Shown piece by piece: positions 1-19,494 of a stretch of DNA of 19,494 bases. Numbering within the stretch: position 1 is the stretch's first letter; each line of letters begins with the position of its first letter. The position numbers and the translations under genes were made by a program. Below the pieces are notes generated by a model. The model was not told the DNA's origin and did no database searches. It saw only the letters and a program-made list of their open reading frames with translations. The DNA is from a virus (lineage: Duplodnaviria; Heunggongvirae; Uroviricota; Caudoviricetes), in IMG/VR virus record IMGVR_UViG_2534681658_000009; one strand, written 5' to 3'.

Positions 1-2409
<2,409 letters not shown>

Positions 2410-2429
<20 letters not shown>

Positions 2430-3309
2430 TCTCCCGCATATTGCCAGCATGGCCTTTAATGAGCCGCTGATGCTTGAACCCGCCTATGCGCGGGTTTTCT
2501 TTTGTGCGCTTGCAGGCCAGCTTGGGATCAGCCGCCTGACGGATGCGGTGTCCGGTGACAGCCTGACTGCCCAGGAGGCACTCGCGACGCTGGCGTTATC
2601 CGGTGATGATGACGGACCACGACAGGCCCGCAGTTATCAGGTCATGAACGGCATCGCCGTGCTGCCGGTGTCCGGCACGCTGGTCAGCCGGACGCGGGCG
2701 CTGCAGCCGTACTCGGGGATGACCGGTTACAACGGCATTATCGCCCGTCTGCAACAGGCTGCCAGCGACCCGATGGTGGACGGCATTCTGCTCGATATGG
2801 ACACGCCAGGCGGAATGGTGGCGGGGGCATTTGACTGCGCTGACATCATCGCCCGTGTGCGTGACATAAAACCGGTATGGGCGCTGGCCAACGACATGAA
2901 CTGCAGTGCAGGTCAGCTGCTTGCCAGTGCCGCCTCCCGGCGTCTGGTCACGCAGACCGCCCGGACAGGCTCCATCGGCGTCATGATGGCTCACAGTAAT
3001 TACGGTGCTGCCCTGGAGAAACAGGGTGTGGAAATCACGCTGATTTACAGCGGCAGCCATAAGGTGGATGGCAATCCCTACAGCCATCTTCCGGATGACG
3101 TCCGGGAGACACTGCAGTCCCGGATGGACGCAACCCGCCAGATGTTTGCGCAGAAGGTGTCGGCATATACCGGCCTGTCTGTGCAGGCTGTGCTGGATAC
3201 CGAGGCTGCAGTGTACAGCGGTCAGGAGGCCATTGATGCCGGACTGGCTGATGAACTTGTTAACAGCACCGATGCGATCACCGTCATGCGTGATGCACTG
3301 GATGCCTAA
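2410..3309 (+). CDS. C: Capsid assembly protease gpC (S49/ClpP-like), 299 aa; C-terminally truncated relative to the 439-aa lambda gpC because the Nu3-homologous region is in a different frame
   Basis: GTG at 2410 gives TAELRNLPHIASMAFNEPLMLEPAYARVFF..., the lambda gpC N-terminus, 20 nt inside the end of B. Frame ends DALDA then TAA at 3307..3309. In lambda the same frame continues through the Nu3 sequence. Confidence 0.85.
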
Positions 3310-3331
3310 ATCCCGTCTCTCAGGAGGGCGA

Positions 3332-3727
3332 ATGACCAAAGAGACTCAATCAACAACTGTTTCAGCCACTGCTTCGCAGACTGACGTTACTGACGTGGTG
3401 CCAGCGACGGAGGGCGAAAACGCCAGCGCGGCGCAGCCGGACGTGAACGCGCAGATCACCGCTGCGGTTGCGGCAGAAAACAGCCGCATTATGGGGATCC
3501 TCAACTGTGAGGAGGCTCACGGACGCGAAGAACAGGCGCGCGTGCTGGCAGAAACCCCCGGTATGACCGTGGAAACGGCCCGCCGCATTCTGGCCGCAGC
3601 ACCACAGAGTGCACAGGCGCGCAGTGACACTGCGCTGGATCGTCTGATGCAGGGGGCACCGGCACCGCTGGCTACAGGTAACCCGGCATCTGATGCCGTT
3701 AACGATTTGCTGAACACACCAGTGTAA
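3332..3727 (+). CDS. nu3: Capsid scaffolding protein Nu3
   Basis: ATG at 3332 preceded by caggaggg (RBS); MTKETQSTTVSATASQTDVTDVVPATEGENASAAQPDVNAQITAAVAAENSRIMGILNCEEAHGREEQARVLAETPGMTVETARRILAAAPQSAQARSDTALDRLMQGAPAPLATGNPASDAVNDLLNTPV matches lambda Nu3. It is in frame 2 while the C N-terminal part is in frame 1. Confidence 0.9.
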   Translation: MTKETQSTTVSATASQTDVTDVVPATEGENASAAQPDVNAQITAAVAAENSRIMGILNCEEAHGREEQARVLAETPGMTVETARRILAAAPQSAQARSDTALDRLMQGAPAPLATGNPASDAVNDLLNTPV

Positions 3728-3736
3728 GGGATGTTT

Positions 3737-4069
3737 ATGACGAGCAAAGAAACCTTTACCCATTACCAGCCGCTGGGCAACAGTGACCCGGCTCATACCG
3801 CAACCGCGCCAGGCGGATTGAGTGCGAAAGCGCCTGCAATGACCCCGCTGATGCTGGACACCTCCACCCGTAAGCTGGTTGCGTGGGATGGCACCACCGA
3901 CGGTGCTGCCGTTGGCATTCTTGCTGTTGCTGCTGACCAGACCAGCACCACGCTGACGTTCTACAAGTCCGGCACGTTCCGTTATGAGGATGTGCTCTGG
4001 CCGGAGGCTGCCAGCGACGAGACGAAAAAACGGACCGCGTTTGCCGGAACGGCAATCAGCATCGTTTAA
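3737..4069 (+). CDS. D: Capsid decoration protein gpD
   Basis: 110-aa product [43 protein letters not shown]... matches lambda gpD; same length as lambda D (333 nt). The track ORF starts two codons upstream at 3731. Confidence 0.95.
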
Positions 4070-4088
4070 CCTTACCCTTCATCACTAA

Positions 4089-4112
4089 AGGCCGCCTGTG
4101 CGGCTTTTTTTA
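4089..4112 (+). terminator. GC-rich hairpin plus T-run between D and E (terminator-like or mRNA-stabilising stem-loop)
   Basis: gccgc-ctgtg-cggc followed by an 8-T run directly after the D stop; E starts 13 nt later. Confidence 0.4.
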
Positions 4113-4124
4113 CGGGATTTTTTT

Positions 4125-5150
4125 ATGTCGATGTACACAACCGCCCAGCTGCTGGCGGCAAATGAGAAGAAATTTAAGTTTGATCCGCTGTTTCTGCGTC
4201 TCTTTTTCCGTGAGAGCTATCCCTTCACCACGGAGAAAGTCTATCTCTCACAAATTCCGGGACTGGTAAACATGGCGCTGTACGTTTCGCCGATTGTTTC
4301 CGGTGAGGTTATCCGCTCCCGTGGCGGCTCCACCTCTGAATTTACACCGGGATATGTCAAGCCGAAGCATGAGGTGAATCCGCAGATGACCCTGCGTCGC
4401 CTGCCGGATGAAGATCCGCAGAATCTGGCGGACCCGGCTTACCGCCGCCGTCGCATCATCATGCAGAACATGCGAGACGAAGAGCTGGCCATTGCTCAGG
4501 TCGAAGAGATGCAGGCAGTTTCTGCCGTGCTTAAGGGCAAATACACCATGACCGGTGAAGCTTTCGATCCGGTTGAGGTGGATATGGGCCGCAGTGCGGC
4601 GAACAACATCACACAGTCCGGCGGCACGGAGTGGAGCAAGCGTGACAAGTCCACGTATGACCCGACCGACGATATCGAAGCCTATGCGCTGAACGCCAGC
4701 GGCGTGGTGAATATCATCGTGTTTGATCCGAAAGGCTGGGCGCTGTTCCGTTCCTTCAAAGCCGTCAAGGAGAAGCTGGATACCCGTCGCGGCTCTAATT
4801 CCGAGCTGGAGACAGCGGTAAAAGACCTGGGCGAAGCGGTGTCCTATAAGGGGATGTATGGCGATACGGCGATCGTCGTGTATTCCGGACAGTACGTGGA
4901 AAACGACGTCAAAAAGAACTTCCTTCCGGACAACACGATGGTGCTGGGGAACACTCAGGCACGCGGTCTGCGCACCTATGGCTGCATTCAGGATGCGGAC
5001 GCACAGCGCGAAGGTATTAACGCCTCTGCCCGCTACCCGAAAAACTGGGTGACCACCGGCGATCCGGCGCGTGAGTTCACCATGATTCAGTCAGCACCGC
5101 TGATGCTGCTGGCTGACCCTGATGCGTTCGTGTCCGTACAACTGGCGTAA
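4125..5150 (+). CDS. E: Major capsid protein gpE
   Basis: MSMYTTAQLLAANEKKFKFDPLFLRLFFRESYPFTTEKVYLSQIPGLVNMALYVSPIVSGEV... matches lambda gpE; 341 aa as in lambda. The track ORF begins at an upstream ATG (4098); homology supports 4125. Confidence 0.95.
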   Translation: MSMYTTAQLLAANEKKFKFDPLFLRLFFRESYPFTTEKVYLSQIPGLVNMALYVSPIVSGEVIRSRGGSTSEFTPGYVKPKHEVNPQMTLRRLPDEDPQNLADPAYRRRRIIMQNMRDEELAIAQVEEMQAVSAVLKGKYTMTGEAFDPVEVDMGRSAANNITQSGGTEWSKRDKSTYDPTDDIEAYALNASGVVNIIVFDPKGWALFRSFKAVKEKLDTRRGSNSELETAVKDLGEAVSYKGMYGDTAIVVYSGQYVENDVKKNFLPDNTMVLGNTQARGLRTYGCIQDADAQREGINASARYPKNWVTTGDPAREFTMIQSAPLMLLADPDAFVSVQLA

Positions 5151-5152
5151 TC

Positions 5153-5174
5153 ATGGCCCTTCGGGGCCATTTTC
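5153..5174 (+). terminator. Short hairpin after E (atggccc-ttcg-gggccat, then T-rich); probable retroregulatory or partial terminator
   Basis: Perfect 7-bp inverted repeat with a 4-nt loop immediately after the E stop codon. Confidence 0.35.
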
Positions 5175-5191
5175 TCTCTGTGGAGGAGTTC

Positions 5192-5587
5192 ATGACGAAA
5201 GATGAACTGATTGCCCGTCTTCAGGTGCTGGGTGAGCAACTGAACCGTGATGTCAGCCTGACGGGGACGAAAGAAGAACTGGTGCTCCGTGTGGCAGAGC
5301 TGGAAGAGGAGCTTGATGACACGGATGACGCTGCCGGTCAGGACACATCTGTCAGCCCGGAAAATGCGCTGACCGGACATGAAAATGAGGTGGTATCAGC
5401 GCAGCCGGATACCGTGATTGATACGGCTGCTCTGGTCACGGTCGTGGCACTGGTGACGCTGCATACTGATGCACTTCACGCCACGCGGGATGAGCCTGTG
5501 GCATTTGTGCTGCCGGGAACGGCGTTTCGTGTCTCTGCCGGTGTGGCAGCCGAAATGACAGAACATGGCCTGGCCAGAATGCAATAA
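5192..5587 (+). CDS. FI: DNA packaging / head assembly protein FI
   Basis: MTKDELIARLQVLGEQLNRDVSLTGTKEEL... matches lambda gpFI; ggagg RBS before ATG 5192; one codon shorter than lambda FI (131 vs 132 aa). Confidence 0.9.
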   Translation: MTKDELIARLQVLGEQLNRDVSLTGTKEELVLRVAELEEELDDTDDAAGQDTSVSPENALTGHENEVVSAQPDTVIDTAALVTVVALVTLHTDALHATRDEPVAFVLPGTAFRVSAGVAAEMTEHGLARMQ

Positions 5588-5598
5588 CGGGAGGCGCT

Positions 5599-5952
5599 GT
5601 GGCTGATTCCGATAACCTGTTCGATGCTGCCATTGCCCGCGCCGATGAAACGATACGCGGGTACATGGGAACGTCAGCCACCATGACATCCGGTGAGCAG
5701 TCAGGTGCGGTGATACGTGGTGTTTTTGATGACCCTGAAAATATCAGCTATGCCGGACAGGGCGTGCGCGTTGAAGGCTCCAGCCCGTCCCTGTTTGTCC
5801 GGACTGATGATGTGCGGCAGCTGCGGCGCGGCGACACGCTGACCATCGGTGAGGAAAACTTCTGGATAGACCGGATTTCGCCGGATGATGGCGGAAGCTG
5901 TCATCTCTGGCTTGGGCGGGGCGTACCGCCTGCCGTTAACCGTCGCCGCTGA
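5599..5952 (+). CDS. FII: Head completion / head-tail connector protein FII
   Basis: 117-aa ORF (GTG start) MADSDNLFDAAIARADETIRGYMGTSATMTSGEQSGAVIRGVFDDPENISYAGQGVRVEG... matches lambda gpFII. Confidence 0.92.
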   Translation: MADSDNLFDAAIARADETIRGYMGTSATMTSGEQSGAVIRGVFDDPENISYAGQGVRVEGSSPSLFVRTDDVRQLRRGDTLTIGEENFWIDRISPDDGGSCHLWLGRGVPPAVNRRR

Positions 5953-5963
5953 AAGGGGGATGT

Positions 5964-6542
5964 ATGGCCATAAAAGGTCTTGAGCAGGCCGTTGAAAACC
6001 TCAGCCGTATCAGCAGAACGGCGGTGCCCGGTGCCGCCGCAATGGCCATTAACCGCGTTGCTTCATCCGCGATATCGCAGTCGGTGGCACAGGTTGCCCG
6101 TGAGACAAAGGTACGCCGGAAACTGGTAAAGGAAAGGGCCAGGCTGAAAAGGGCCACGGTCAAAAATCCGCAGGCCAGAATCAGGGTTAACCGGGGGGAT
6201 TTGCCCGTAATCAAGCTGGGTAACGCGCGGGTTGTCCTTTCCCGCCGCAGACGTCGTAAAAAGGGGCAGCGTTCATCCCTGAAAGGTGGCGGCAGCGTGC
6301 TTGTGGTGGGAAACCGTCGTATTCCCGGCGCGTTTATTCAGCAACTGAAAAATGGCCGGTGGCATGTCATGCAGCGTGTGGCCGGGAAAAACCGTTACCC
6401 CATTGATGTGGTGAAAATCCCGATGGCGGTGCCGCTTACCACGGCGTTTAAACAGAATATTGAACGGATACGGCGTGAACGTCTTCCGAAAGAGCTGGGC
6501 TATGCGCTGCAGCATCAACTGAGGATAGTAATAAAGCGATGA
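5964..6542 (+). CDS. Z: Tail completion protein Z
   Basis: 192-aa ORF, same length as lambda gpZ and matching in sequence; stop overlaps U start. Confidence 0.92.
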   Translation: MAIKGLEQAVENLSRISRTAVPGAAAMAINRVASSAISQSVAQVARETKVRRKLVKERARLKRATVKNPQARIRVNRGDLPVIKLGNARVVLSRRRRRKKGQRSSLKGGGSVLVVGNRRIPGAFIQQLKNGRWHVMQRVAGKNRYPIDVVKIPMAVPLTTAFKQNIERIRRERLPKELGYALQHQLRIVIKR

Positions 6543-6934
6543 AACATACTGAACTCCGTGCAGCCGTACTGGATGCACTGGAGAAGCATGACACCGGGGC
6601 GACGCTTTTTGATGGTCGCCCCGCTGTTTTTGATGAGGCGGATTTTCCGGCAATTGCCGTTTATCTCACCGGCGCTGAATACACGGGCGAAGAGCTGGAC
6701 AGCGATACATGGCAGGCGGAGCTGCATATCGAAGTTTTCCTGCCTGCTCAGGTGCCGGATTCAGAGCTGGATTCGTGGATGGAGTCCCGGATTTATCCGG
6801 TGATGAGCGATGTCCCGGCACTGTCAGATTTGATCACCAGTATGGTGGCCAGTGGCTATGACTACCGGCGCGACGATGATGCGGGCCTGTGGAGTTCAGC
6901 CGATCTGACTTATGTCATTACCTATGAAATGTGA
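6539..6934 (+). CDS. U: Tail terminator protein U
   Basis: 131-aa [57 protein letters not shown]... matches lambda gpU. Confidence 0.93.
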
Positions 6935-6941
6935 GGACGAT

Positions 6942-7682
6942 ATGCCTGTACCAAATCCAGTAATGCCGGTGAAAGGGGCCGGGACCACACTGTGGGTTTA
7001 TAAGGGGAGCGGTGACCCTTATGCGAACCCGCTTTCAGACGTTGACTGGTCGCGTCTGGCAAAAGTTAAAGACCTGACGCCCGGCGAACTGACCGCTGAG
7101 TCCTATGACGACAGCTATCTCGATGATGAAGATGCAGACTGGACTGCGACCGGGCAGGGGCAGAAATCTGCCGGAGATACCAGCTTCACGCTGGCGTGGA
7201 TGCCCGGAGAGCAGGGGCAGCAGGCGCTGCTGGCGTGGTTTAATGAAGGGGATACCCGTGCCTATAAAATCCGCTTCCCGAACGGCACGGTCGATGTGTT
7301 CCGTGGCTGGGTCAGCAGTATCGGTAAGGCGGTGACGGCGAAGGAAGTGATCACCCGTACGGTGAAGGTCACCAATGTGGGCCGTCCGTCAATGGCAGAA
7401 GATCGCAGTACGGTGACGGCGGCAACCGGTATGACTGTGACGCCTGCCAGCTCCTCGGTGGTGAAAGGGCAGAGCACCACGCTGACCGTGGCATTCCAGC
7501 CGGAGGGTGCAACTGACAAGAGCTTCCGTGCGGTGTCAGCGGATAAAACAAAAGCCACCGTGTCGGTCAGTGGTATGACCATCACCGTGAATGGCGTTGC
7601 TGCAGGTAAGGTCAACATTCCGGTCGTATCCGGTAATGGTGAGTTTGCTGCGGTTGCAGAAATCACCGTCACCGCCAGTTAA
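6942..7682 (+). CDS. V: Major tail tube protein V, with C-terminal Ig-like (Big_2) domain
   Basis: [50 protein letters not shown]... matches lambda gpV (246 aa from ATG 6942; track ORF starts upstream at 6912). C-terminal ...[30 protein letters not shown]... is the Ig-like domain. Confidence 0.94.
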
Positions 7683-7697
7683 TCCGGAGAGTCAGCG

Positions 7698-8120
7698 ATG
7701 TTCCTGAAAACCGAATCATTTGAACATAACGGTGTGACCGTCACGCTTTCTGAACTGTCAGCCCTGCAGCGAATTGAGCATCTCGCCCTGCTGAAACGAC
7801 AGGCAGAACAGGCGGGATCCAGTCTCAATCGACAGGTGAGCGTGGAAGATCTCGTCAGAACCGGTGCTTTTCTGGTGGCGATGTCCCTGTGGCATAGCCA
7901 TCCGCAGAAGACAAAGATGCCGTCCATGAATGAAGCCGTTAAACAAATTGAGCAGGAAGTGCTTACCACCTGGCCCACAGAGGCAATTGCTCAGGCTGAA
8001 AATGTGGTAATGCGTCTGTCCGGTATGTCTGAGTTTGTTGTGAATGATGCACCTGAACAGGCAGATGACGCCGGGCCAGCAGAGCCTGTTTCTGCGGGAA
8101 AGTGTTCGACGGTGAGCTGA
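7698..8120 (+). CDS. G: Tail assembly chaperone G
   Basis: 140-aa ORF MFLKTESFEHNGVTVTLSELSALQRIEHLALLKRQAEQ... matches lambda gpG; ends shortly after the slippery heptamer. Confidence 0.94.
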   Translation: MFLKTESFEHNGVTVTLSELSALQRIEHLALLKRQAEQAGSSLNRQVSVEDLVRTGAFLVAMSLWHSHPQKTKMPSMNEAVKQIEQEVLTTWPTEAIAQAENVVMRLSGMSEFVVNDAPEQADDAGPAEPVSAGKCSTVS

Positions 8121-8536
8121 GTTTTGCCCTGAAACTGGCGCGTGAGATGGGGCGACCCGACTGGCGCGCCATGCTTGCCGGGATGTCATCCACGGAGTAT
8201 GCCGACTGGCACCGCTTTTACAGTACCCATTATTTTCATGATGTTCTGCTGGATATGCACTTTTCCGGGCTGACGTACACCGTGCTCAGCCTGTTTTTCA
8301 GCGATCCGGATATGCATCCGCTGGATTTCAGTCTGCTGAACCGGCGCGAGGCTGACGAAGAGCCTGAAGATGATGTGCTGATGCAGAAAGCGGCAGGGCT
8401 TGCCGGAGGTGTCCGCTTTGGCCCGGACGGGAATGAAGTTATCCCTACTTCCCCGGATGTGGCGGACATGACGGAGGATGACGTAATGCTGATGACAGTA
8501 TCAGAAGGGATCGCAGGAGGAGTCCGGTATGGCTGA
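7698..8536 (+). CDS. T: Tail assembly chaperone G-T fusion, made by programmed -1 ribosomal frameshift at 8096..8102 (T-frame portion 8102..8536)
   Basis: The -1 frame after GGGAAAG reads VFDGELSFALKLAREMGRPDWRAMLAGMSSTEYADWHRFY..., matching lambda gpT; the T frame has no independent start with an RBS. Confidence 0.88.
8096..8102 (+). other. Programmed -1 frameshift slippery heptamer G_GGA_AAG (G/T recoding site)
   Basis: Heptamer GGGAAAG is phased as X XXY YYZ in the G frame, 6 codons before the G stop. Confidence 0.85.
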
Positions 8537-11108
8537 ACCGGTAGGCGATCTGGTCGTTGATTTGAGTCTGGATGCGGCCAGATTTGACGAGCAGATGGCC
8601 AGAGTCAGGCGTCATTTTTCCGGTACGGAAAGTGATGCGAAAAAAACAGCGGCAGTCGTTGAACAGTCAATGAACCGGCAGGCGCTGGCTGCACAGAAAG
8701 CGGGGATTTCCGTCGGACAGTATAAAGCCGCCATGCGTATGCTGCCTGCACAGTTCACCGACGTGGCCACGCAGCTTGCAGGCGGGCAAAGTCCGTGGCT
8801 GATCCTGCTGCAACAGGGGGGTCAGGTGAAGGACTCCTTCGGCGGGATGATCCCCATGTTCCGGGGGCTTGCCGGTGCGATCACCCTGCCGATGGTGGGG
8901 GCCACCTCGCTGGCGGTGGCGACCGGTGCGCTGGCGTATGCCTGGTATCAGGGCAACTCAACCCTGTCCGATTTCAACAAAACGCTGGTCCTTTCCGGCA
9001 ATCAGGCGGGACTGACGGCAGATCGTATGCTGGTCCTGTCCAGAGCCGGGCAGGCGGCAGGGCTGACGTTTAACCAGACCAGCGAGTCACTGACGGCGCT
9101 GGTGAATGCCGGTGTGCGTGGTGGTGAGCAGTTTGAGGCGATCAGCCAGAGTGTGGCGCGTTTCTCCTCTGCATCCGGCGTGGAGGTGGACAAGGTCGCT
9201 GAAGCCTTCGGGAAGCTGACCACAGACCCGACGTCGGGACTGACAGCGATGGCACGTCAGTTCCATAACGTGACGGCGGAGCAGATTGCGTATGTTGCTC
9301 AGTTGCAGCGTTCCGGCGATGAAGCCGGGGCATTGCAGGCGGCGAACGAGGCCGCAACGAAAGGGTTTGATGACCAGACCCGCCGCCTGAAAGAGAACAT
9401 GGGCACGCTGGAGACCTGGGCAGACAGGACAGCACGGGCATTCAAATCCATGTGGGATTCGGTGCTGGATATTGGTCGCCCGGACACTGCCCAGGGAATG
9501 CTGGAGAAAGCAGAAAAGGCTTTTGATGAGGCGGACAAAAAATGGCAGTGGTATCAGAGCCGGAGCCACCGGCGCGGTAAAACCTCAGCATTTCGTGCCA
9601 ATCTCCGGGGAGCATGGGAGGACAGAGCGAATGCGCAACTTGGACTTTCAGCCGCCACGTTGCAGGCCGATCTTGAAAAGGCCAGAGAGATGGCAGCAAA
9701 GGACTGGGCCGAGTCTGAGGCATCACGGCTGAAATATACCGAAGAGGCGCAGAAGGCTTACGAACGGCTGCAGACGCCGCTGGAGAAATATACCGCCCGT
9801 CAGGAAGAACTGAACAAGGCACTGAAAGACGGGAAAATCCTGCAGGCGGATTACAACACGCTGATGGCGGCGGCGAAAAAGGATTATGAAGCGACGCTGA
9901 AAAAGCCGAAACAGTCCGGCGTGAAAGTGTCTGCGGGCGATCGTCAGGAAGACAGTGCTCATGCTGCCCTGCTGACGCTTCAGGCAGAACTCCGGACGCT
10001 GGAGAAGCATGCCGGAGCAAATGAGAAAATCAGCCAGCAGCGCCGGGATTTGTGGAAGGCGGAGAGTCAGTTCGCGGTACTGGAGGAGGCGGCGCAACGT
10101 CGCCAGCTATCCGCACAGGAGAAATCCCTGCTGGCGCATAAAGATGAGACGCTGGAGTACAAACGCCAGCTGGCTGCACTTGGCGACAAGGTTACGTATC
10201 AGGAGCGCCTGAACGCGCTGGCGCAGCAGGCGGATAAATTCGCACAGCAGCAACGGGCAAAACGGGCCGCCATTGATGCGAAAAGCCGGGGGCTGACTGA
10301 CCGGCAGGCAGCGCGGGAAGCCACAGAACAGCGCCTGAAGGAACAGTATGGCGATAATCCTCTGGCGCTGAATAACGTCATGTCAGAGCAGAAAAAGACC
10401 TGGGCGGCTGAAGACCAGCTTCGCGGGAACTGGATGGCAGGCCTGAAGTCCGGCTGGAGTGAGTGGGAAGAGAGCGCCACGGACAGTATGTCGCAGGTAA
10501 AAAGTGCAGCCGCGCAGACCTTTGATGGTATTGCACAGAATATGGCGGCGATGCTGACCGGCAGTGAGCAGAACTGGCGCAGCTTCACCCGTTCCGTGCT
10601 GTCCATGATGACAGAAATTCTGCTTAAGCAGGCAATGGTGGGGATTGTCGGGAGTATCGGCAGCGCCATTGGCGGAGCTGTTGGTGGCGGCGCATCCGCG
10701 TCAGGCGGTACAGCCATTCAGGCCGCTGCGGCGAAATTCCATTTTGCAACCGGAGGATTTACGGGAACCGGCGGCAAATATGAGCCAGCGGGGATTGTTC
10801 ACCGTGGTGAGTTTGTCTTCACGAAGGAGGCAACCAGCCGGATTGGCGTGGGGAATCTTTACCGGCTGATGCGCGGCTATGCCACCGGCGGTTATGTCGG
10901 TACACCGGGCAGCATGGCAGACAGCCGGTCGCAGGCGTCCGGGACGTTTGAGCAGAATAACCATGTGGTGATTAACAACGACGGCACGAACGGGCAGATA
11001 GGTCCGGCTGCTCTGAAGGCGGTGTATGACATGGCCCGCAAGGGTGCCCGTGATGAAATTCAGACACAGATGCGTGATGGTGGCCTGTTCTCCGGAGGTG
11101 GACGATGA
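8529..11108 (+). CDS. H: Tail tape measure protein H (859 aa)
   Basis: Intact 859-aa ORF; N-terminus MAEPVGDLVVDLSLDAARFDEQMARVRRHF and C-terminus ...QTQMRDGGLFSGGGR match lambda gpH; coiled-coil-rich middle and Gly-rich C-terminal segment; overlaps T stop and M start. Confidence 0.93.
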   Translation: MAEPVGDLVVDLSLDAARFDEQMARVRRHFSGTESDAKKTAAVVEQSMNRQALAAQKAGISVGQYKAAMRMLPAQFTDVATQLAGGQSPWLILLQQGGQVKDSFGGMIPMFRGLAGAITLPMVGATSLAVATGALAYAWYQGNSTLSDFNKTLVLSGNQAGLTADRMLVLSRAGQAAGLTFNQTSESLTALVNAGVRGGEQFEAISQSVARFSSASGVEVDKVAEAFGKLTTDPTSGLTAMARQFHNVTAEQIAYVAQLQRSGDEAGALQAANEAATKGFDDQTRRLKENMGTLETWADRTARAFKSMWDSVLDIGRPDTAQGMLEKAEKAFDEADKKWQWYQSRSHRRGKTSAFRANLRGAWEDRANAQLGLSAATLQADLEKAREMAAKDWAESEASRLKYTEEAQKAYERLQTPLEKYTARQEELNKALKDGKILQADYNTLMAAAKKDYEATLKKPKQSGVKVSAGDRQEDSAHAALLTLQAELRTLEKHAGANEKISQQRRDLWKAESQFAVLEEAAQRRQLSAQEKSLLAHKDETLEYKRQLAALGDKVTYQERLNALAQQADKFAQQQRAKRAAIDAKSRGLTDRQAAREATEQRLKEQYGDNPLALNNVMSEQKKTWAAEDQLRGNWMAGLKSGWSEWEESATDSMSQVKSAAAQTFDGIAQNMAAMLTGSEQNWRSFTRSVLSMMTEILLKQAMVGIVGSIGSAIGGAVGGGASASGGTAIQAAAAKFHFATGGFTGTGGKYEPAGIVHRGEFVFTKEATSRIGVGNLYRLMRGYATGGYVGTPGSMADSRSQASGTFEQNNHVVINNDGTNGQIGPAALKAVYDMARKGARDEIQTQMRDGGLFSGGGR

Positions 11109-11434
11109 AGACCTTCCGCTGGAAAGTGAAACCCGGTATGGATGTGGCTTCGGTCCCTTCTGTAAGAAAGGTGCGCTTTGGTGATGGCTATTCTCAGCGA
11201 GCGCCTGCCGGGCTGAATGCCAACCTGAAAACGTACAGCGTGACGCTTTCTGTCCCCCGTGAGGAGGCCACGGTACTGGAGTCGTTTCTGGAAGAGCACG
11301 GGGGCTGGAAATCCTTTCTGTGGACGCCGCCTTATGAGTGGCGGCAGATAAAGGTGACCTGCGCAAAATGGTCGTCGCGGGTCAGTATGCTGCGTGTTGA
11401 GTTCAGCGCAGAGTTTGAACAGGTGGTGAACTGA
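11105..11434 (+). CDS. M: Tail tip protein M
   Basis: 109-aa ORF MKTFRWKVKPGMDVASVPSVRKVRFGDGYSQRAPAGLNANLKTYSVTLSV... matches lambda gpM; ATGA overlaps with H and L. Confidence 0.94.
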   Translation: MKTFRWKVKPGMDVASVPSVRKVRFGDGYSQRAPAGLNANLKTYSVTLSVPREEATVLESFLEEHGGWKSFLWTPPYEWRQIKVTCAKWSSRVSMLRVEFSAEFEQVVN

Positions 11435-12107
11435 TGCAGGATATCCGGCAGGAAACACTGAATGAATGCACCCGTGCGGAGCAGTCGGCCAGCGTGGTGC
11501 TCTGGGAAATCGACCTGACAGAGGTCGGTGGAGAACGTTATTTTTTCTGTAATGAGCAGAACGAAAAAGGTGAGCCGGTCACCTGGCAGGGGCGCAGTAT
11601 CAGGTATCCCATTCAGGGGACGGTTTGAACTGAAGGCAAGGCATCCGCCACCTGACGGTTTCTAACCTGTACGGATGGTCACCGGGATGGCGGAAGATCT
11701 GCAGAGTCTGGTCGGCGGAACGGTGGTCCGGCGTAAGGTTTACGCCCGTTTTCTGGATGCGGTGAACTTCGTCAACGGAAACAGGAGCCGATCCGGAGCA
11801 GGAGGTGATCAGCCGCTGGCGCATGAGCAGTGCAGCGAACTGAGGCGGTAGTGCCTCTTTGTACTGTCCACGCCGACGGAAACGGAGGCGCTGTTTTTCC
11901 GGGACGTATCATGCTGGCCAACACCTGCACCTGGACCTATCGCGGTGATGAGTGCGGTTATCACGGTCCGGCGTCGCGGATGAATATGACCAGCCGACGT
12001 CCGATATCACGAAGGATAAATGCAGCAAATGCCTGAGCGGCTGTAAGTTTCGCAATAACGTCGGCAACTTTGGCGGCTTCCTTTCCATTAACAAACTTTC
12101 GCAGTAA
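11434..12107 (+). pseudogene. L: Tail tip protein L, disrupted by multiple frameshifts (or sequence errors)
   Basis: The first 64 codons match the lambda gpL N-terminus, then a stop at 11626..11628. Later gpL segments lie in other frames: MVTGMAEDLQSLVGGTVVRRKVYARFLDAVNFVNGN from 11675 (frame 2), GAVFPGRIMLANTCTWTYRGDECGY around 11890 (frame 1), DITKDKCSKCLSGCKFRNNVGNFGGFLSINKLSQ up to the stop at 12105..12107 (frame 0). The locus is 674 nt, not a multiple of 3. Confidence 0.8.
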
Positions 12108-12111
12108 TCCC

Positions 12112-12852
12112 ATGACACAGACAGAATCAGCGATTCTGGCGCACGCCCGGCGATGTGCGCCAGCGGAGTCGTGCGGCTTCGTGGTGAGAACGCCGGAGGG
12201 GGAAAGATATTTTCCCTGCGTGAATATCTCCGGTGAGCCGGAGGCGTATTTCCGGATGGCTCCGGAGGACTGGCTGCAGGCAGAGATGCAGGGTGAGATT
12301 GTGGCACTGGTCCACAGTCATCCCGGTGGTCTGCCCTGGCTGAGTGAGGCTGACCGGCGGCTGCAGGTGCAGAGTGATTTGCCGTGGTGGCTGGTCTGCC
12401 GGGGGGCGATTCACAAGTTCCGCTGTGTGCCGCATCTCACCGGGCGGCGCTTTGAGCACGGGGTGACGGACTGTTACACGCTGTTCCGGGATGCTTATCA
12501 TCTGGCGGGGATTGAGATGCCGGATTTTCATCGCGGGGATGACTGGTGGCGTCACGGTCAGAATCTCTATCTGGATAATCTGGAGGCCACAGGGCTGTAT
12601 CAGGTGCCGTTGTCACAGCGCAGCCGGGCGATGTGCTGCTGTGCTGTTTTGGTTCATCGGTGCCGAATCATGCCGCCATTTACTGCGGCGACGGTGAGCT
12701 GCTGCACCATATTCCTGAACAACTGAGTAAACGAGAGAGGTATACCGACAAATGGCAGCGACGCACACACTCCCTCTGGCGTCACCGGGCATGGCACGCA
12801 TCTGCCTTTACGGGGATTTCAACGATTTGGCCGCCGCATCGACCTTCGGTGA
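12112..12852 (+). pseudogene. K: Tail tip assembly protein K (JAMM/MPN plus NlpC/P60 domains), frameshifted in the C-terminal half
   Basis: MTQTESAILAHARRCAPAESCGFVV... with JAMM motif HSHPGGLPWLSEAD (12313..12354) and DCYTLF segment in frame 1. Homology moves to frame 0 after about 12620 (LLCCFGSSVPNHAAIYCGDGELLHHIPEQLSKRERYTDKWQRRTHSLWRHRAW) and shifts again near 12820. Confidence 0.8.
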
Positions 12853-13392
12853 AAACGGGGCGAAGCCATCCGGGCGCTGGCCATGCAGATCCCGGCGTTT
12901 CGTCAGAAACTGAGCGACGGCTGGTACAGGTACGCATTGCCGGGCGTGATGCAGGTGAAACCGAATTGTCTGCCCGTCTTAATGAGCCGCTGGCAAATGG
13001 TGCCGTGATCCAATCGTGCCGCGTCTGGCGGGAGCTAAAAGTGGCGGTGTGTTTCAGGTGGTGCTGGGGGCGGCGTTATTGCGGTGGCATGGTGGAACCC
13101 TGTGGGCTGGCTGGGTGCCGCGGCTGTATCGGGCATGTATGCGGCAGGGGCCAGTATGATCCTGGGCGGAGTGGCGCAGATGCTGGCACCGAAAGCCAGG
13201 ACGCCCACGGCAGCAAGTACAGATAACGGCAAACAGAACACCTATTTCTCCTCACTGGATAACATGGTTGCCCAGGGCAATGTTCTGCCTGTTCTGTACG
13301 GTGAAATGCGCGTGGGGTCACGCGTGGTTTCTCAGGAGATCAGCACGGCAGACGAAGGGGATGGTGGTCAGGTTGTGGTGATTGGTCGCTGA
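12752..13392 (+). pseudogene. I: Tail tip assembly protein I, disrupted by multiple frameshifts
   Basis: ATG 12752 gives MAATHTLPLASPGMARICLYGD (lambda gpI N-terminus, frame 2), stop after about 50 codons. VQVRIAGRD... continues in frame 0, and the C-terminal ...ILGGVAQMLAPKARTP...DNGKQNTYFSSLDNMVAQGNVLPVLYGEMRVGSRVVSQEISTADEGDGGQVVVIGR is in frame 1, ending at 13392. Confidence 0.8.
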
Positions 13393-13410
13393 TGCAAAAT
13401 GTTTTATGTG

Positions 13411-13436
13411 AAACCGCCTCCGGGCGGTTTTATCGT
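13411..13436 (+). terminator. Intergenic hairpin between I and J (aaaccgcc-tccg-ggcggttt, then T-rich)
   Basis: 8-bp inverted repeat with 4-nt loop followed by ttatcgtttat; may be a weak terminator or an RNA-stability element. Confidence 0.3.
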
Positions 13437-13452
13437 TTATGGAGCATGACGA

Positions 13453-16400
13453 ATGGGTAAAGGCAGCAGTAAGGGGCATACCCCGCGCGAAGCAAAGGAC
13501 AACCTGAAGTCCACGCAGTTGCTGAGTGTGATCGATGCCATCAGCGAAGGGCCGGTTGAAGGTCCGGTGGATGGATTAAAAAGCGTGCTGCTGAACAGTA
13601 CACCGGTGCTGGACAGTGAGGGGAATACTAACATCTCTGGTGTCACGGTGGTGTTCCGGGCAGGTGAGCAGGAACAGACACCGCCGGAGGGATTTGAATC
13701 CTCCGGCTCCGAGACGGTGCTGGGTACGGAAGTGAAATATGACACGCCGATCACCCGGACCATCACGTCTGCAAATATCGACCGTCTGCGCTTTACCTTC
13801 GGTGTGCAGGCACTGGTGGAAACCACCTCAAAGGGGGACAGGAATCCGTCGGAAGTCCGCCTGCTGGTTCAGATACAACGTAACGGTGGCTGGGTGACAG
13901 AAAAAGACATCACCATTAAGGGCAAAACCACTTCACAGTATCTGGCCTCGGTGGTGGTGGATAACCTGCCGCCGCGCCCGTTTAATATCCGGATGCGCAG
14001 AATGACGCCGGACAGCACCACAGACCAGCTGCAGAACAAAACGCTCTGGTCGTCATACACCGAAATTATCGATGTGAAACAGTGCTACCCGAACACGGCA
14101 CTGGTCGGCGTGCAGGTGGACTCGGAGCAGTTCGGCAGCCAGCAGGTGAGCCGTAATTATCATCTGCGCGGGCGCATTCTGCAGGTGCCGTCGAACTATA
14201 ACCCGCAGACGCGGCAATACAGCGGTATCTGGGACGGAACGTTTAAGCCAGCATACAGCAACAACATGGCCTGGTGTCTGTGGGATATGCTGACCCATCC
14301 GCGCTACGGCATGGGGAAACGTCTTGGTGCGGCAGATGTGGATAAATGGGCGCTGTATGTCATCGGCCAGTACTGCGACCAGTCGGTGCCGGACGGTTTT
14401 GGCGGCACGGAGCCGCGCATCACCTGTAATGCCTACCTGACCACGCAGCGTAAGGCGTGGGATGTGCTCAGTGATTTCTGCTCGGCGATGCGCTGTATGC
14501 CGGTATGGAACGGGCAGACGCTGACGTTCGTGCAGGACCGACCATCAGATAAGGTGTGGACCTATAACCGCAGTAATGTGGTGATGCCGGATGATGGCGC
14601 GCCGTTCCGCTACAGCTTCAGCGCCCTGAAGGACCGCCATAATGCCGTTGAGGTGAACTGGATTGACCCGAATAACGGCTGGGAGACGGCGACAGAGCTT
14701 GTTGAAGATACGCAGGCCATTGCCCGTTACGGTCGTAACGTCACGAAGATGATGCCTTTGGCTGTACCAGCCGGGGGCAGGCGCACCGCGCCGGGCTGTG
14801 GCTGATTAAAACGGAACTGCTGGAAACGCAGACCGTGGACTTCAGCGTGGGTGCGGAAGGGCTTCGCCATGTACCGGGGGATGTCATTGAAATCTGCGAT
14901 GATGACTATGCGGGTATCAGCACCGGTGGGCGCGTGCTGGCGGTGAACAGCCAGACCCGGACGCTGACGCTCGACCGTGAAATCACGCTGCCATCCTCCG
15001 GTACCACGCTGATAAGCCTGGTTGACGGAAGTGGAATCCGGTCAGCGTGGAGGTCAGTCCGTCACCGACGGCGTGAAGGTAAAGTGAGCCGTGTTCCTGA
15101 CGGCGTTGCGATACAGCGTGTGGGGGCTGAAGCTGCCGACGCTGCGCCAGCGCCTGTTCCGCTGCGTGAGTATCCGTGAGAACGATGACGGCACGTATGC
15201 CATCACCGCCGTGCAGCATGTACCGGAAAAAGAGGCCATCGTGGATAACGGGGCGCACTTTGACGGCGACCAGAGCGGCACGGTGAATGGTGTCACGCCG
15301 CCAGCAGTGCAGCATCTGACCGCCGAAGTCACCGCAGACAGCGGGGAGTATCAGGTACTGGCCCGCTGGGATACGCCGAAGGTGGTGAAGGGCGTGAGTT
15401 TCATGCTTCGCCTGACCGTGGCAGCGGATGACGGCAGTGAGCGGCTGGTCAGCACAGCCCGGACGGCGGAAACCACATACCGCTTCACACAACTGGCGCT
15501 GGGGAACTACAGGCTGACAGTCCGGGCAGTAAATGCGTGGGGGCAGCAGGGCGATCCGGCGTCGGTATCGTTCCGGATTGCCGCACCGGCAGCACCGTCG
15601 CGGATTGAGCTGACGCCGGGCTATTTTCAGATAACCGCAACGCCGCATCTTGCGGTTTATGACCCGACGGTACAGTTTGAGTTCTGGTTCTCGGAAAAAC
15701 GGATTGCGGATATCAGGCAGGTTGAAACCAGCGCGCGTTATCTTGGTACGGCACTGTACTGGATAGCCGCCAGTATCAATATCAAACCGGGCCATGATTA
15801 TTATTTTTACGTTCGCAGTGTGAACACCGTTGGCAAATCGGCATTCGTGGAGGCTGTCGGTCAGCCGAGTGATGATGCATCAGGCTATCTGGATTTTTTC
15901 AAAGGCGAGATAGGGAAAACCCATCTGGCTCAGGAGCTGTGGACGCAGATTGATAACGGTCAGCTTGCGCCTGACCTGACTGAAATCAGGACGTCCATAA
16001 CGGATGTCAGCAATGAAATAACACAGACCGTCAATAAGAAACTGGAAGACCAGAGTGCAGCGATCCAGCAGATACAGAAGGTTCAGGTTGATACAAATAA
16101 TAACCTGAACAGCATGTGGGCAGTGAAGCTGCAGCAGATGCAGGACGGACGCCTTTATATTGCGGGTATCGGTGCCGGTATTGAGAACACCCCTGACGGC
16201 ATGCAGAGTCAGGTGCTGCTGGCGGCGGACAGGATTGCGATGATTAATCCTGCAAATGGCAACACAAAACCGATGTTTGTTGGTCAGGGTGATCAGATAT
16301 TCATGAATGACGTGTTCCTGAAACGCCTGACGGCTCCCACCATTACCAGCGGTGGAAATCCGCCGGCATTTTCCCTGACACCGGACGGAAAGCTGACCGC

Positions 16401-16944
16401 TAAAAATGCGGATATCAGTGGCAGTGTGAATGCGAACGCCGGGACGCTCAACAATGTCACGGTAAATGAAAACTGTACGATTAAGGGCATGCTGGAGGCG
16501 ACTCAGGTCAGAGGTGACTTCGTTAAAGCTGTATCCAAATCATTCCCGAAACAGGCTGGTACGTGGGGTAATACGGAAACACCAAACGGGACGGTTACAG
16601 TCACCATCAGCGATGATCATAACTTTGACCGTCAAATCATTATTCCGCCCATTATCTTTAACGGAATAGCGTATAGCGATCCGGGAAGTGGTAATAACCC
16701 GGGAGGTACAAGATACACGGGTTATGGTTTTGAAGTTCGCAAAAACGGCGTATTAATCGCATCCAGAGAAACTAAAGGGGCCATTCCCGGTAGTTACAGT
16801 GCAGTTATTGATATGCCGAGTGGCAGGGGAAGCGTCACTCTGGAGTTTAAGATTTTCCAGAAAGGCAATCAGGGGGCAGGCAATATCACCGACTGTACGG
16901 TGATTGTGACCAAAAAAGCCGCTTCCGGCATCAGTATTCGTTGA
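13453..16944 (+). pseudogene. J: Tail tip attachment protein / central tail fibre J, interrupted by frameshifts near 14750 and 15040..15120; the 3' 617 codons are intact
   Basis: Three consecutive ORFs in frames 1, 0, 1 (13453..14805, 14835..15179, 15091..16944) each carry successive gpJ-like sequence: MGKGSSKGHTPREAKDNLKSTQLLSVIDAISEGPVEGPVDG..., then ...AFGCTSRGQAHRAGLWLIKTELLETQTVDFSVGAEGLRHVPGDVIEICDDDYAGISTGG..., then [42 protein letters not shown]... to the stop. Confidence 0.85.
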
Positions 16945-16966
16945 AATATTTATAACCCCAATAAAG

Positions 16967-16992
16967 GGCGTCAGGAATGACGCCTTTTTTAT
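16967..16992 (+). terminator. Rho-independent terminator downstream of J
   Basis: ggcgtca-ggaa-tgacgcc stem-loop followed by tttttt att, 22 nt after the J stop. Confidence 0.7.
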
Positions 16993-17014
16993 TGCAGAAA
17001 AGCGAGAGGTAATT

Positions 17015-17614
17015 ATGCGTAAAGTTTGTGCAGCAATTTTGTCCGCAGCCATTTGTCTGGCCGTATCCGGTGCGCCTGCATGGGCGTCTGAACATCAGTC
17101 CACGCTGAGCGCGGGGTATCTTCATGCCTCGACGAACGTCCCCGGCAGTGATGATCTGAACGGGATTAACGTGAAATACCGTTATGAGTTTACGGACACA
17201 CTGGGGCTGGTGACGTCATTCAGCTATGCAGGAGACAAGAATCGCCAGCTGACCCGTTACAGCGATACCCGCTGGCATGAAGATTCCGTTCGTAACCGCT
17301 GGTTCAGCGTAATGGCGGGGCCGTCTGTGCGCGTGAATGAATGGTTCAGCGCGTATGCGATGGCGGGTGTGGCTTACAGCCGTGTGTCGACTTTCTCCGG
17401 GGATTATCTCCGCGTAACTGACAACAAGGGGAAAACGCACGACGTGCTGACCGGAAGTGATGACGGTCGCCACAGCAACACGTCTCTGGCGTGGGGGGCT
17501 GGCGTGCAGTTTAACCCGACCGAATCCGTGGCCGTTGATGTCGCTTATGAAGGCTCCGGCAGTGGCAACTGGCGCACTGACGGTTTCATCGTGGGTGTTG
17601 GTTATAAGTTCTGA
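17015..17614 (+). CDS. lom: Outer-membrane beta-barrel protein Lom (Ail/Lom/OmpX family), a lysogenic-conversion moron
   Basis: 199-aa ORF with signal peptide MRKVCAAILSAAICLAVSGAPAWA and C-terminal ...GFIVGVGYKF (terminal Phe typical of outer-membrane beta-barrels); matches lambda Lom; gagagg RBS; own terminators on both sides. Confidence 0.93.
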   Translation: MRKVCAAILSAAICLAVSGAPAWASEHQSTLSAGYLHASTNVPGSDDLNGINVKYRYEFTDTLGLVTSFSYAGDKNRQLTRYSDTRWHEDSVRNRWFSVMAGPSVRVNEWFSAYAMAGVAYSRVSTFSGDYLRVTDNKGKTHDVLTGSDDGRHSNTSLAWGAGVQFNPTESVAVDVAYEGSGSGNWRTDGFIVGVGYKF

Positions 17615-17641
17615 TTAGCCAGGTAACACAGTGTTATGACA

Positions 17642-17668
17642 GCCCGCCGGTTCAGGCGGGCTTTTTTG
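17642..17668 (+). terminator. Rho-independent terminator downstream of lom
   Basis: gcccgcc-ggttcag-gcgggc stem-loop followed by tttttt. Confidence 0.7.
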
Positions 17669-17678
17669 TGGGGTGAAT

Positions 17679-19494
17679 ATGGCAGTAAAGATTTCAGGTG
17701 TACTGAAAGACGGTGCAGGTAAACCGGTACAGAACTGTACAATCCAGCTGAAAGCAAAACGTAACAGCACCACGGTGGTGGCGAACACGGTGGCCTCAGA
17801 AAATCCGGATGAAGCCGGGCGTTACAGCATGGACGTTGAGTACGGTCAGTACAGCGTTATTCTGTTGGTGGAAGGCTTCCCGCCATCGCATGCCGGGACC
17901 ATCACCGTGTATGAAGACTCACAACCGGGTACGCTGAATGATTTTCTCGGTGCCATGACGGAGGATGATGTCCGTCCGGAGGCACTGCGCCGCTTTGAAC
18001 TGATGGTGGAAGAGGTGGCGCGTAACGCGTCCGCGGTGGCACAGAACACGGCAGCCGCGAAGAAGTCAGCCAGCGATGCCGGCACATCAGCCCGTGAGGC
18101 GGCAACCCATGCGACTGATGCTACAGGCTCAGCACGGCAGCCAGCACTCAGCCGGCAGGCCGCGCGTCGGCTCAGTCAGCTCTTCCAGCGCAGGAACGGC
18201 ATCAACAAAGGCCATGAAGCATCAAAAGTGCTGCGCTGCAGAGTCCTCAAAAAGCGCGGCAGCTACCAGTGCCGTGCGGCGAAAACGTCAGAAACGAATG
18301 CGGCAGCGTCACAAAATCGCAGCCACTTCTGCATCCGCCGCGACCACGAAGCGTCAGAAGCGCCACCTCAGCCCGGGATGCGGCGGCCTCAAAAGAGGCA
18401 GCGAAATCATCAGAAACGAACGCATCATCAAGCGCCAGTAGTGCCGCTTCCTCGGCAACGGCGGCAGGCAATTCCGCGAAGGCGGCAAAAACGTCGAGAC
18501 AACGCCAGGTCTTCTGAAACGGCAGCGGGACAGAGCGCCTCAGCTGCGGCAGGCTCAAAAACAGCGGCTGCGTCGTCTGCCAGTGCCGCATCAACAAGTG
18601 CCGGGCAGGCCTCAGCCAGTGCCACCGCTGCCGGAAAGTCGGCAGAAAGTGCCGCATCGTCTGCTTCAACAGCCACAACGAAGGCTGGCGAAGCCACTGA
18701 ACAGGCCAGCGCAGCAGCGAGGTCAGCTTCCGCAGCGAAGACATCCGAAACGAACGCGAAAGCGTCGGAAACCCGTGCAGAATCCTCAAAAACGGCTGCC
18801 GCATCGTCAGCCAGTTCGGCGGCGTCATCGGCATCATCGGCGTCTGCTTCAAAAGATGAGGCGACCATACAGGCGTCAGCAGCGAAGGGCAGCGCCACGA
18901 CGGCATCCACGAAGGCGACAGAGGCTGCTGGTAGTGCGACGGCAGCAGCTCAGAGCAAAAGTACGGCGGAATCTGCAGCAACGCGCGCTGAGACAGCGGC
19001 AAAACGGGCAGAGGATATTGCATCCGCCGTGGCGCTTGAGGATGCGAGCACGACGAAAAAGGGGATAGTACAGCTCAGTAGTGCGACTAACAGCACGTCT
19101 GAAACGCTGGCGGCAACGCCAAAGGCAGTAAAATCAGCCTATGACAATGCAGAGAAACGTCTGCAGAAAGACCAGAACGGCGCTGATATACCCGATAAGG
19201 GACGCTTCCTGAACAACATTAACGCGGTCAGTAAAACAGACTTTGCTGATAAGCGTGGTATGCGTTATGTGCGGGTTAACGCTCCTGCAGGTGCAACATC
19301 TGGAAAATATTACCCTGTTGTTGTTATGCGTTCTGCTGGCTCAGTAAGCGAACTGGCATCAAGGGTCATTATCACCACGGCAACGCGAACCGCAGGCGAT
19401 CCGATGAATAACTGCGAGTTTAACGGATTTGTTATGCCTGGTGGCTGGACTGACAGGGGGCGTTATGCTTATGGAATGTTCTGGCAATATCAAA
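17679..19494 (+). CDS. stf: Side tail fibre protein Stf, N-terminal 605 codons (3' end outside the window); an internal stretch of about 18110..18520 is frame-scrambled
   Basis: ATG 17679 gives MAVKISGVLKDGAGKPVQNCTIQLKAKRNSTTVVANTVASENPDEAGRYSMDVEYGQYSVILLVEGFPPSHAGTITVYEDSQPGTLNDFL..., matching the lambda Stf N-terminus. Frame 0 stays open to the window end, which is why the ORF is missing from the stop-delimited track. Downstream Ala/Ser/Thr-rich repeats and the KGIVQLSSATNSTSETLAATPKAVK motif are in frame. Confidence 0.8.
   Translation, partial: MAVKISGVLKDGAGKPVQNCTIQLKAKRNSTTVVANTVASENPDEAGRYSMDVEYGQYSVILLVEGFPPSHAGTITVYEDSQPGTLNDFLGAMTEDDVRPEALRRFELMVEEVARNASAVAQNTAAAKKSASDAGTSAREAATHATDATGSARQPALSRQAARRLSQLFQRRNGINKGHEASKVLRCRVLKKRGSYQCRAAKTSETNAAASQNRSHFCIRRDHEASEAPPQPGMRRPQKRQRNHQKRTHHQAPVVPLPRQRRQAIPRRRQKRRDNARSSETAAGQSASAAAGSKTAAASSASAASTSAGQASASATAAGKSAESAASSASTATTKAGEATEQASAAARSASAAKTSETNAKASETRAESSKTAAASSASSAASSASSASASKDEATIQASAAKGSATTASTKATEAAGSATAAAQSKSTAESAATRAETAAKRAEDIASAVALEDASTTKKGIVQLSSATNSTSETLAATPKAVKSAYDNAEKRLQKDQNGADIPDKGRFLNNINAVSKTDFADKRGMRYVRVNAPAGATSGKYYPVVVMRSAGSVSELASRVIITTATRTAGDPMNNCEFNGFVMPGGWTDRGRYAYGMFWQYQ
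18050..18960 (+). repeat. Low-complexity Ala/Ser/Thr-rich coding repeats of the Stf shaft
   Basis: Reiterated GCN/TCN/ACN codon runs encoding variants of SAAASSA / AAKTSETNA; they give stop-free ORFs in all frames on both strands. Confidence 0.7.

Follow-up and report, generated by a model that had tools for sequence, protein, structure and literature searches.

Near-identical repeats of phage origin are a documented source of error in E. coli genome sequences: the first genome of E. coli O157:H7 EDL933 had over 6,000 ambiguous calls, together with phage-associated repeats longer than 7 kb (PMC4132626), and collapsed repeats as well as false frameshifts induced by indels count as standard assembly errors (PMC13577107). 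The locus described here resembles EDL933 in that near-identical phage-associated repeats appear to have defeated assembly and left an unreliable consensus, and differs from it in that the affected columns seem to have been dropped silently instead of being marked by IUPAC codes or N, which would leave 1-nt deletions and false pseudogenes. The gene at issue corresponds to that for lambda gpJ, the central tail fibre protein of the TipJ family, and like it lies between gpI and lom and encodes the full series of Pfam domains once repaired; unlike lambda gpJ, its deposited reading frame has five breaks, with six bases lost. Truly frameshifted pseudogenes of cryptic lambdoid prophages also show small deletions in tail genes, and one gpL lesion of the present locus is indeed shared with a closed genome, but the lesions reported here otherwise follow the SNP columns between prophage copies, occur in a single draft only, and have no substitutions alongside them. 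Judged from the sequence, the frameshifts in J are best read, with a probability of about 0.9, as a consensus artefact of collapsed paralogous prophages in a 2013-era draft assembly and not as biology.

The window, i.e. the whole stretch of DNA that was analysed, is the entire stand-alone 19,494-bp contig AQDL01000023.1 of draft assembly GCA_000354995.2 (E. coli 2860050). Synteny with annotated closed genomes and the genes called on the contig gave the order terminase (its end only), portal, capsid, tail shaft, tape measure, gpM/L/K/I, J, lom and stf (its start only), and the gene content was restricted to the late genes of a lambdoid prophage. A short contig of prophage late genes alone is the typical output of an assembler for a repeat that it cannot place. 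The same syntenic genomes and called genes placed J downstream of gpL-gpK-gpI and upstream of lom and stf, where it is expected in the late operon. It aligned over its full length with annotated Escherichia phage J genes (3498 nt) at 96% DNA identity, the window copy measuring 3492 nt. The gene and its ORF fragments were as follows:

13453..16944, + strand: lambda-type tail tip / host specificity gene J, from the ORF list and alignment to intact J
13453..14805, + strand: J ORF fragment 1, 450 aa, terminating in the out-of-frame tail ...NVTKMMPLAVPAGGRRTAPGCG
14835..15179, + strand: J ORF fragment 2, 114 aa
15091..16944, + strand: J ORF fragment 3, 617 aa

A single uninterrupted J ORF of about 1130-1165 codons was absent from the deposited sequence, which offered ORFs of 450, 114 and 617 aa instead. 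The initial annotation of this DNA had described a frame that is intact for 432 codons and breaks near 14750, at least three frame flips between about 15040 and 15120, and 617 uninterrupted codons up to the stop. Alignment with intact J genes bore this description out: one G is lost after 14750, at codon 433/434, five single-base losses fall at 15034-15110, and the ORF 15091..16944 encodes 617 aa. The deposited protein EMV95997.1, 'phage tail family protein [Escherichia coli 2860050]', is the truncated J with the post-14750 deletion; as it carries the out-of-frame tail, this deletion was already in the deposited record and was not made by cutting the window.

In total, J lacked six single bases relative to intact J genes, namely after 14750, 15034, 15054, 15080, 15109 and 15110, with five of the six packed into 77 nt, and was otherwise unremarkable in these alignments. 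Frame 1 holds up to 14750 and gives way to frame 3 (14751-15034), frame 2 (15035-15054), frame 1 (15055-15080), frame 3 (15081-15109), frame 2 (base 15110 alone) and, for the rest of the gene, frame 1 again (15111-16944). As 6 nt are lost in total, the final segment is back in the frame of the first one, 13453 and 15091 both being position 1 mod 3. This shared frame was not part of the initial annotation, and neither were the similar lesions in several other genes of the contig that are described below. The apparent 2-nt loss at 15109/15110 turned out to be two separate losses, as the reference GC[C/T]G[G/A]ATAC became GCGATAC in the window.

The lost positions were compared with natural variation in two ways. 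First, two prophages of the closed genome ETEC-2265 were compared with the window and are referred to as copy A (L007) and copy B (L006). Second, a variable-gap pattern built from the window retrieved from IMG/VR 120 loci whose local backbone is the same, 106 of which cover the region; L067 (B-type) and L090 are natural alleles. The J lesions, with the minor allele frequencies of their columns in this panel, were:

14750..14751, + strand: isolated loss of G at codon 433/434, within the Phage-tail_3 domain (AAGAT[G]GATGCC, GG to G)
15034..15035, + strand: single-base loss at a SNP column; the nearest allele has C, ETEC-2265 copy A has G, and L090 has T
15054..15055, + strand: single-base loss at a C/T SNP column, minor allele frequency 0.40
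15080..15081, + strand: single-base loss at an A/G SNP column, minor allele frequency 0.38
15109..15111, + strand: two single-base losses at SNP columns C/T (0.49) and G/A (0.34), with the G at 15110 retained between them

Restoring the six bases in silico produced one ORF of 1165 codons from 13453 to 16944, which is what the initial annotation had named as its refutation (a corrected consensus with one ORF of about 1130 to 1165 codons over the same interval); all of its peptide landmarks (NVTKM, AFGCTSRGQAHRAGLWLIKTELLET, GSG and two more) were found in the repaired translation. The repaired 1165-aa protein matched FNIII-A_GpJ, Phage-tail_3, Ig_J, Ig_J_second, Phage_Tail_Tip and Ig_GpJ_C, all above gathering cut-offs, and precomputed annotation lists the same six domain families for the unrepaired fragments. 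The first break falls inside Phage-tail_3 (residues 330-498), and the cluster of losses corresponds to residues ~528-554, ahead of the first Ig_J domain. In the strain itself, J is most probably an intact gene of 1165 codons.

Evidence on the origin of the deletions came from the columns at which they occur. Five of the six J losses were on SNP columns. For the five columns of the cluster, minor allele frequencies across the 106 IMG/VR loci were 0.09, 0.40, 0.38, 0.49 and 0.34, while only 8.8% of columns in the same loci reach 0.05. In a three-way alignment of the window with copies A and B, 4/4 J-cluster events and 11/14 stf events sat on columns where A and B differ, and in a panel of four references 32 of 53 lost columns were polymorphic compared with 920 of 8,354 retained ones (11%; odds ratio 12, p = 1e-17). 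The natural alleles L067 and L090 differ at exactly five columns in 14946..15119, and dropping these five reproduces the window exactly over 174 nt, with a chance of ~7e-8 after correction for the 106 alleles tried. Consensus building from a mixed pile of reads removes precisely those bases that vary between copies. Both the p-value of 1e-17 and the exact reproduction from two alleles speak against genuine pseudogenisation, i.e. a decaying cryptic prophage with real 1-nt deletions in J and its neighbours, as random events would not pick copy-variable columns. The same coincidence with inter-copy SNPs would not be expected of noise from a sequencing platform.

Deletions of this kind extended well beyond J. 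Indels were counted by global alignment of the window to the closed genomes TUM11353 (L003) and MS15047 (L004), resulting in about 44 indel events, and 44/44 were deletions relative to L003; relative to L004 there were also two small insertions, at places where L004 itself diverges. The chance of 44/44 events pointing in one direction is 6e-14. The events fell into patches at 3304 (S49 peptidase gene), 11595-12106 (gpL), 12616-13136 (gpK and gpI), 14751 and 15035-15111 (J), and 18137-18501 (stf), and regions outside J with lesions of the same kind included:

11595..13136, + strand: J-like lesions in gpL, gpK and gpI, with ~24 deletion events, one of which removes 10 nt at 11652
18137..18501, + strand: J-like lesions in stf (side tail fibre), with 14 deletion events; 11 of these are on columns that distinguish copy A from copy B of ETEC-2265, and the events lie where B-like sequence gives way to A-like sequence

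Altogether, gpL, gpK, gpI, stf and the S49 peptidase gene held ~38 further small deletions, most of them on copy-variable columns. Since all lesions are deletions and mostly lie on such columns, these genes are false pseudogenes as well.

The prevalence of small deletions is also what some sequencing platforms produce, and two of the J events may equally be described as a shortened run (GG to G and AAAA to AAA). A generic low-quality stretch or platform indels unrelated to repeats, such as homopolymer miscalls of the 454, Ion Torrent or nanopore type, would account for these features. Nevertheless, 26 of 33 single-base losses occurred in runs of length 1 and only 3 in runs of at least 3, which argues against homopolymer errors, and the first 11.4 kb of the contig hold a single event; this explanation is very improbable. 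The initial annotation had favoured an artefact over natural decay, and this part of its interpretation stood. Its proposed cause, a low-quality read segment, did not, given that the losses lie mostly outside homopolymers, on copy-variable columns, and in the repeated part of the contig.

That repeated part could be delimited by means of ETEC-2265. Homology between copy B and the window starts at 11431 and covers only the remaining 8.06 kb (gpL to stf), the head module of B being of another type. No fewer than 43 of the 44 events fell within 11431..19494, which makes up 41% of the contig, and one within 1..11430 (p = 9e-16). Such confinement to a repeated 8 kb is not expected of decay. The best match to the J patch reached 99.3%, with six gaps and one substitution making up the remainder, and was found in a group of closed ETEC genomes in which the J-patch match and the best match to the rest of the window are different prophages. 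These related closed genomes, which are relatives and not the source strain, contain 4-7 copies of the J stretch each, which suggests that strain 2860050 may likewise carry several prophage copies.

Relative to copies A and B, the stretch 11431-19494 alternates between A-like and B-like blocks, with switches near 11590, 12930, 15430-15630, 17400-17430 and 18130; from 18590 on, the window is unlike both copies. Within J, the sequence is B-like to about 15430 and A-like from about 15630, i.e. in the C-terminal receptor-binding third. The blocks could be naturally mosaic, or the assembly could have taken a chimeric path through a repeat that had collapsed. It is at such switches that lost SNP columns occur in runs, e.g. 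at the B-to-A switch in stf (18136-18361). The two ETEC-2265 prophages also carry insertion elements: a copy of ISCro1 (IS66 family) interrupts the gpZ-like tail gene of prophage A (L007 6705-9389), and another adjoins the truncated terminase gene of prophage B (L006 1-1782). The window is free of ISCro1 insertions such as these.

The J deletions proved to be private. Across 5,426 complete E. coli genomes, the 1.1-kb J stretch was found at 15,246 places, and no copy carried the deletions; the best matches all span six extra bases. For the 201-nt stretch around 14751, a gap-free match was seen at 0 of 8,800 places in complete E. coli genomes, and IMG/VR contigs held no exact match to either deleted string. 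The truncated 450-aa J product is on record for one contig only, AQDL01000023.1. This absence from the complete genomes and IMG/VR contigs checked is a further point against decay.

Two other drafts told a related story. L061 (IMGVR_UViG_2529292853_000007, 4971 nt) and L076 (IMGVR_UViG_2534681657_000006, 4506 nt) are short stand-alone draft contigs that both lack the base at 15034/15035, and their other losses, most at columns that vary in the panel, are at 15110 (G/A), 15234 (G/A), 15225, 15272 and 15291. As independent drafts lose bases at the same variable columns, the pattern in L061 and L076 is probably a systematic artefact of some pipeline; a shared mutation is unlikely because the combinations of losses differ between the window, L061 and L076.

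Substitutions provided another way of separating these readings. Lost bases aside, the window differs from the nearest natural allele by one substitution across 14834..15428, while a decaying gene would be expected to accumulate substitutions alongside its deletions. Prophage tail genes do decay, and copy A of ETEC-2265 is itself annotated as frameshifted in gpL and in the gpI-like tail assembly gene (L007 14643-15340) and has a 1-nt gap in gpL in common with the window, at ~11856. This shared gap means that at least one lesion of the contig may be genuine, or it may be a homopolymer error in ETEC-2265. Pseudogenisation as the general cause of the J frameshifts is nevertheless highly unlikely.

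The same near-lack of substitutions disposes of the hypermutated patch that the initial annotation had considered. Targeted diversification classically acts on tail fibre genes, and the lesions form a tight cluster, as might be the case if a diversity-generating retroelement or some other targeted mutagenesis had acted on the gene. The patch shows no excess of substitutions, its frame-destroying deletions are at C, C/T, A/G, C/T and G/A columns and not at adenines, and J-like lesions also affect gpL, gpK, gpI and stf. No reverse transcriptase was present among the called genes of 3453..19494 or among those annotated across the full span in relatives, all of which are lambda late genes. The likelihood of hypermutation is next to negligible.

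A last alternative takes the deletions as real and would explain their position: tail genes of different prophages could have recombined, with heteroduplex mismatches resolved by losing the mismatched base, and this would have inactivated J, L, K, I and stf. If true, loss of bases at inter-copy SNP sites would be a mutational signature of inter-prophage recombination that has not been described before. No mutational process is known to take out exactly those bases at which paralogues vary. This scenario is extremely unlikely.

The collapse of paralogous prophages into one consensus would have proceeded as follows. Strain 2860050 would carry at least two lambdoid prophages whose tail genes from gpL to stf are 90-99% identical, and reads from the different copies would have piled into one contig. 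Wherever the reads in the pile were divided between two bases, neither may have been called and the column dropped from the consensus, a likely route being that a mismatch came to occupy two staggered gap columns or that ambiguous calls were thrown out; the exact algorithmic step is conjectural. Each dropped column would then appear as a 1-nt deletion exactly where the copies differ. The lesions are on copy-variable columns, in the repeated part, all deletions, private to drafts, and repairable.

An even (50:50) merging of the two ETEC-2265 copies was considered as well and did not account for everything, since many A/B differences in J go to B. Only part of the sites at which A and B differ are lost, and across most of J the window follows B. 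It follows that the source strain's partner copy is a mosaic other than A, unless the read mixture was balanced only locally.

About one third of the lost columns were monomorphic in the panels, including the isolated column after 14750, which is G in 106/106 IMG/VR panel loci and in copies A and B. Loss at a monomorphic column is what random mutation would produce, and to this extent the site is compatible with decay. No allele among the panel loci or copies A and B explained the 14751 loss as a dropped SNP column: the nearest SNP lies 5 nt downstream (14756), and dropping it fails to reproduce the window. The isolated loss is probably of the same error class as the cluster, with less certainty, and a genuine mutation at this site is conceivable.

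Stripping of ambiguity codes while the window was prepared was likewise rejected for 14751, as EMV95997.1 has the out-of-frame tail and the window equals the whole deposited contig. Stripping by the submitter's own pipeline is possible and would belong to the same class of explanation as the collapsed consensus.

There is no biological discovery in these frameshifts, and their value lies in a warning and in a diagnostic for false pseudogenes that works without reads. Its signature consists of lesions that are all deletions, lie on paralogue-variable columns, and are limited to the repeated part of a contig that consists of repeat alone. This contig has given rise to at least five false pseudogenes (gpL, gpK, gpI, J and stf), which are already public as truncated proteins, e.g. 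EMV95997.1, and counts of intact prophages, pseudogenes or J receptor-binding variants from drafts of similar vintage would mislead.

A frameshift of a different nature may be encoded elsewhere in the window. The heptamer GGGAAAG occurs at 8096-8102 (+ strand), at the end of the gpG ORF (7698..8120) and where the gpT ORF (8102..8536) starts. Heptamers of this type number four in the window, which is not above chance. The one at 8096-8102 presumably corresponds to the slippery site at which lambda makes its programmed -1 G/GT frameshift, in which case it is an expected and known feature.
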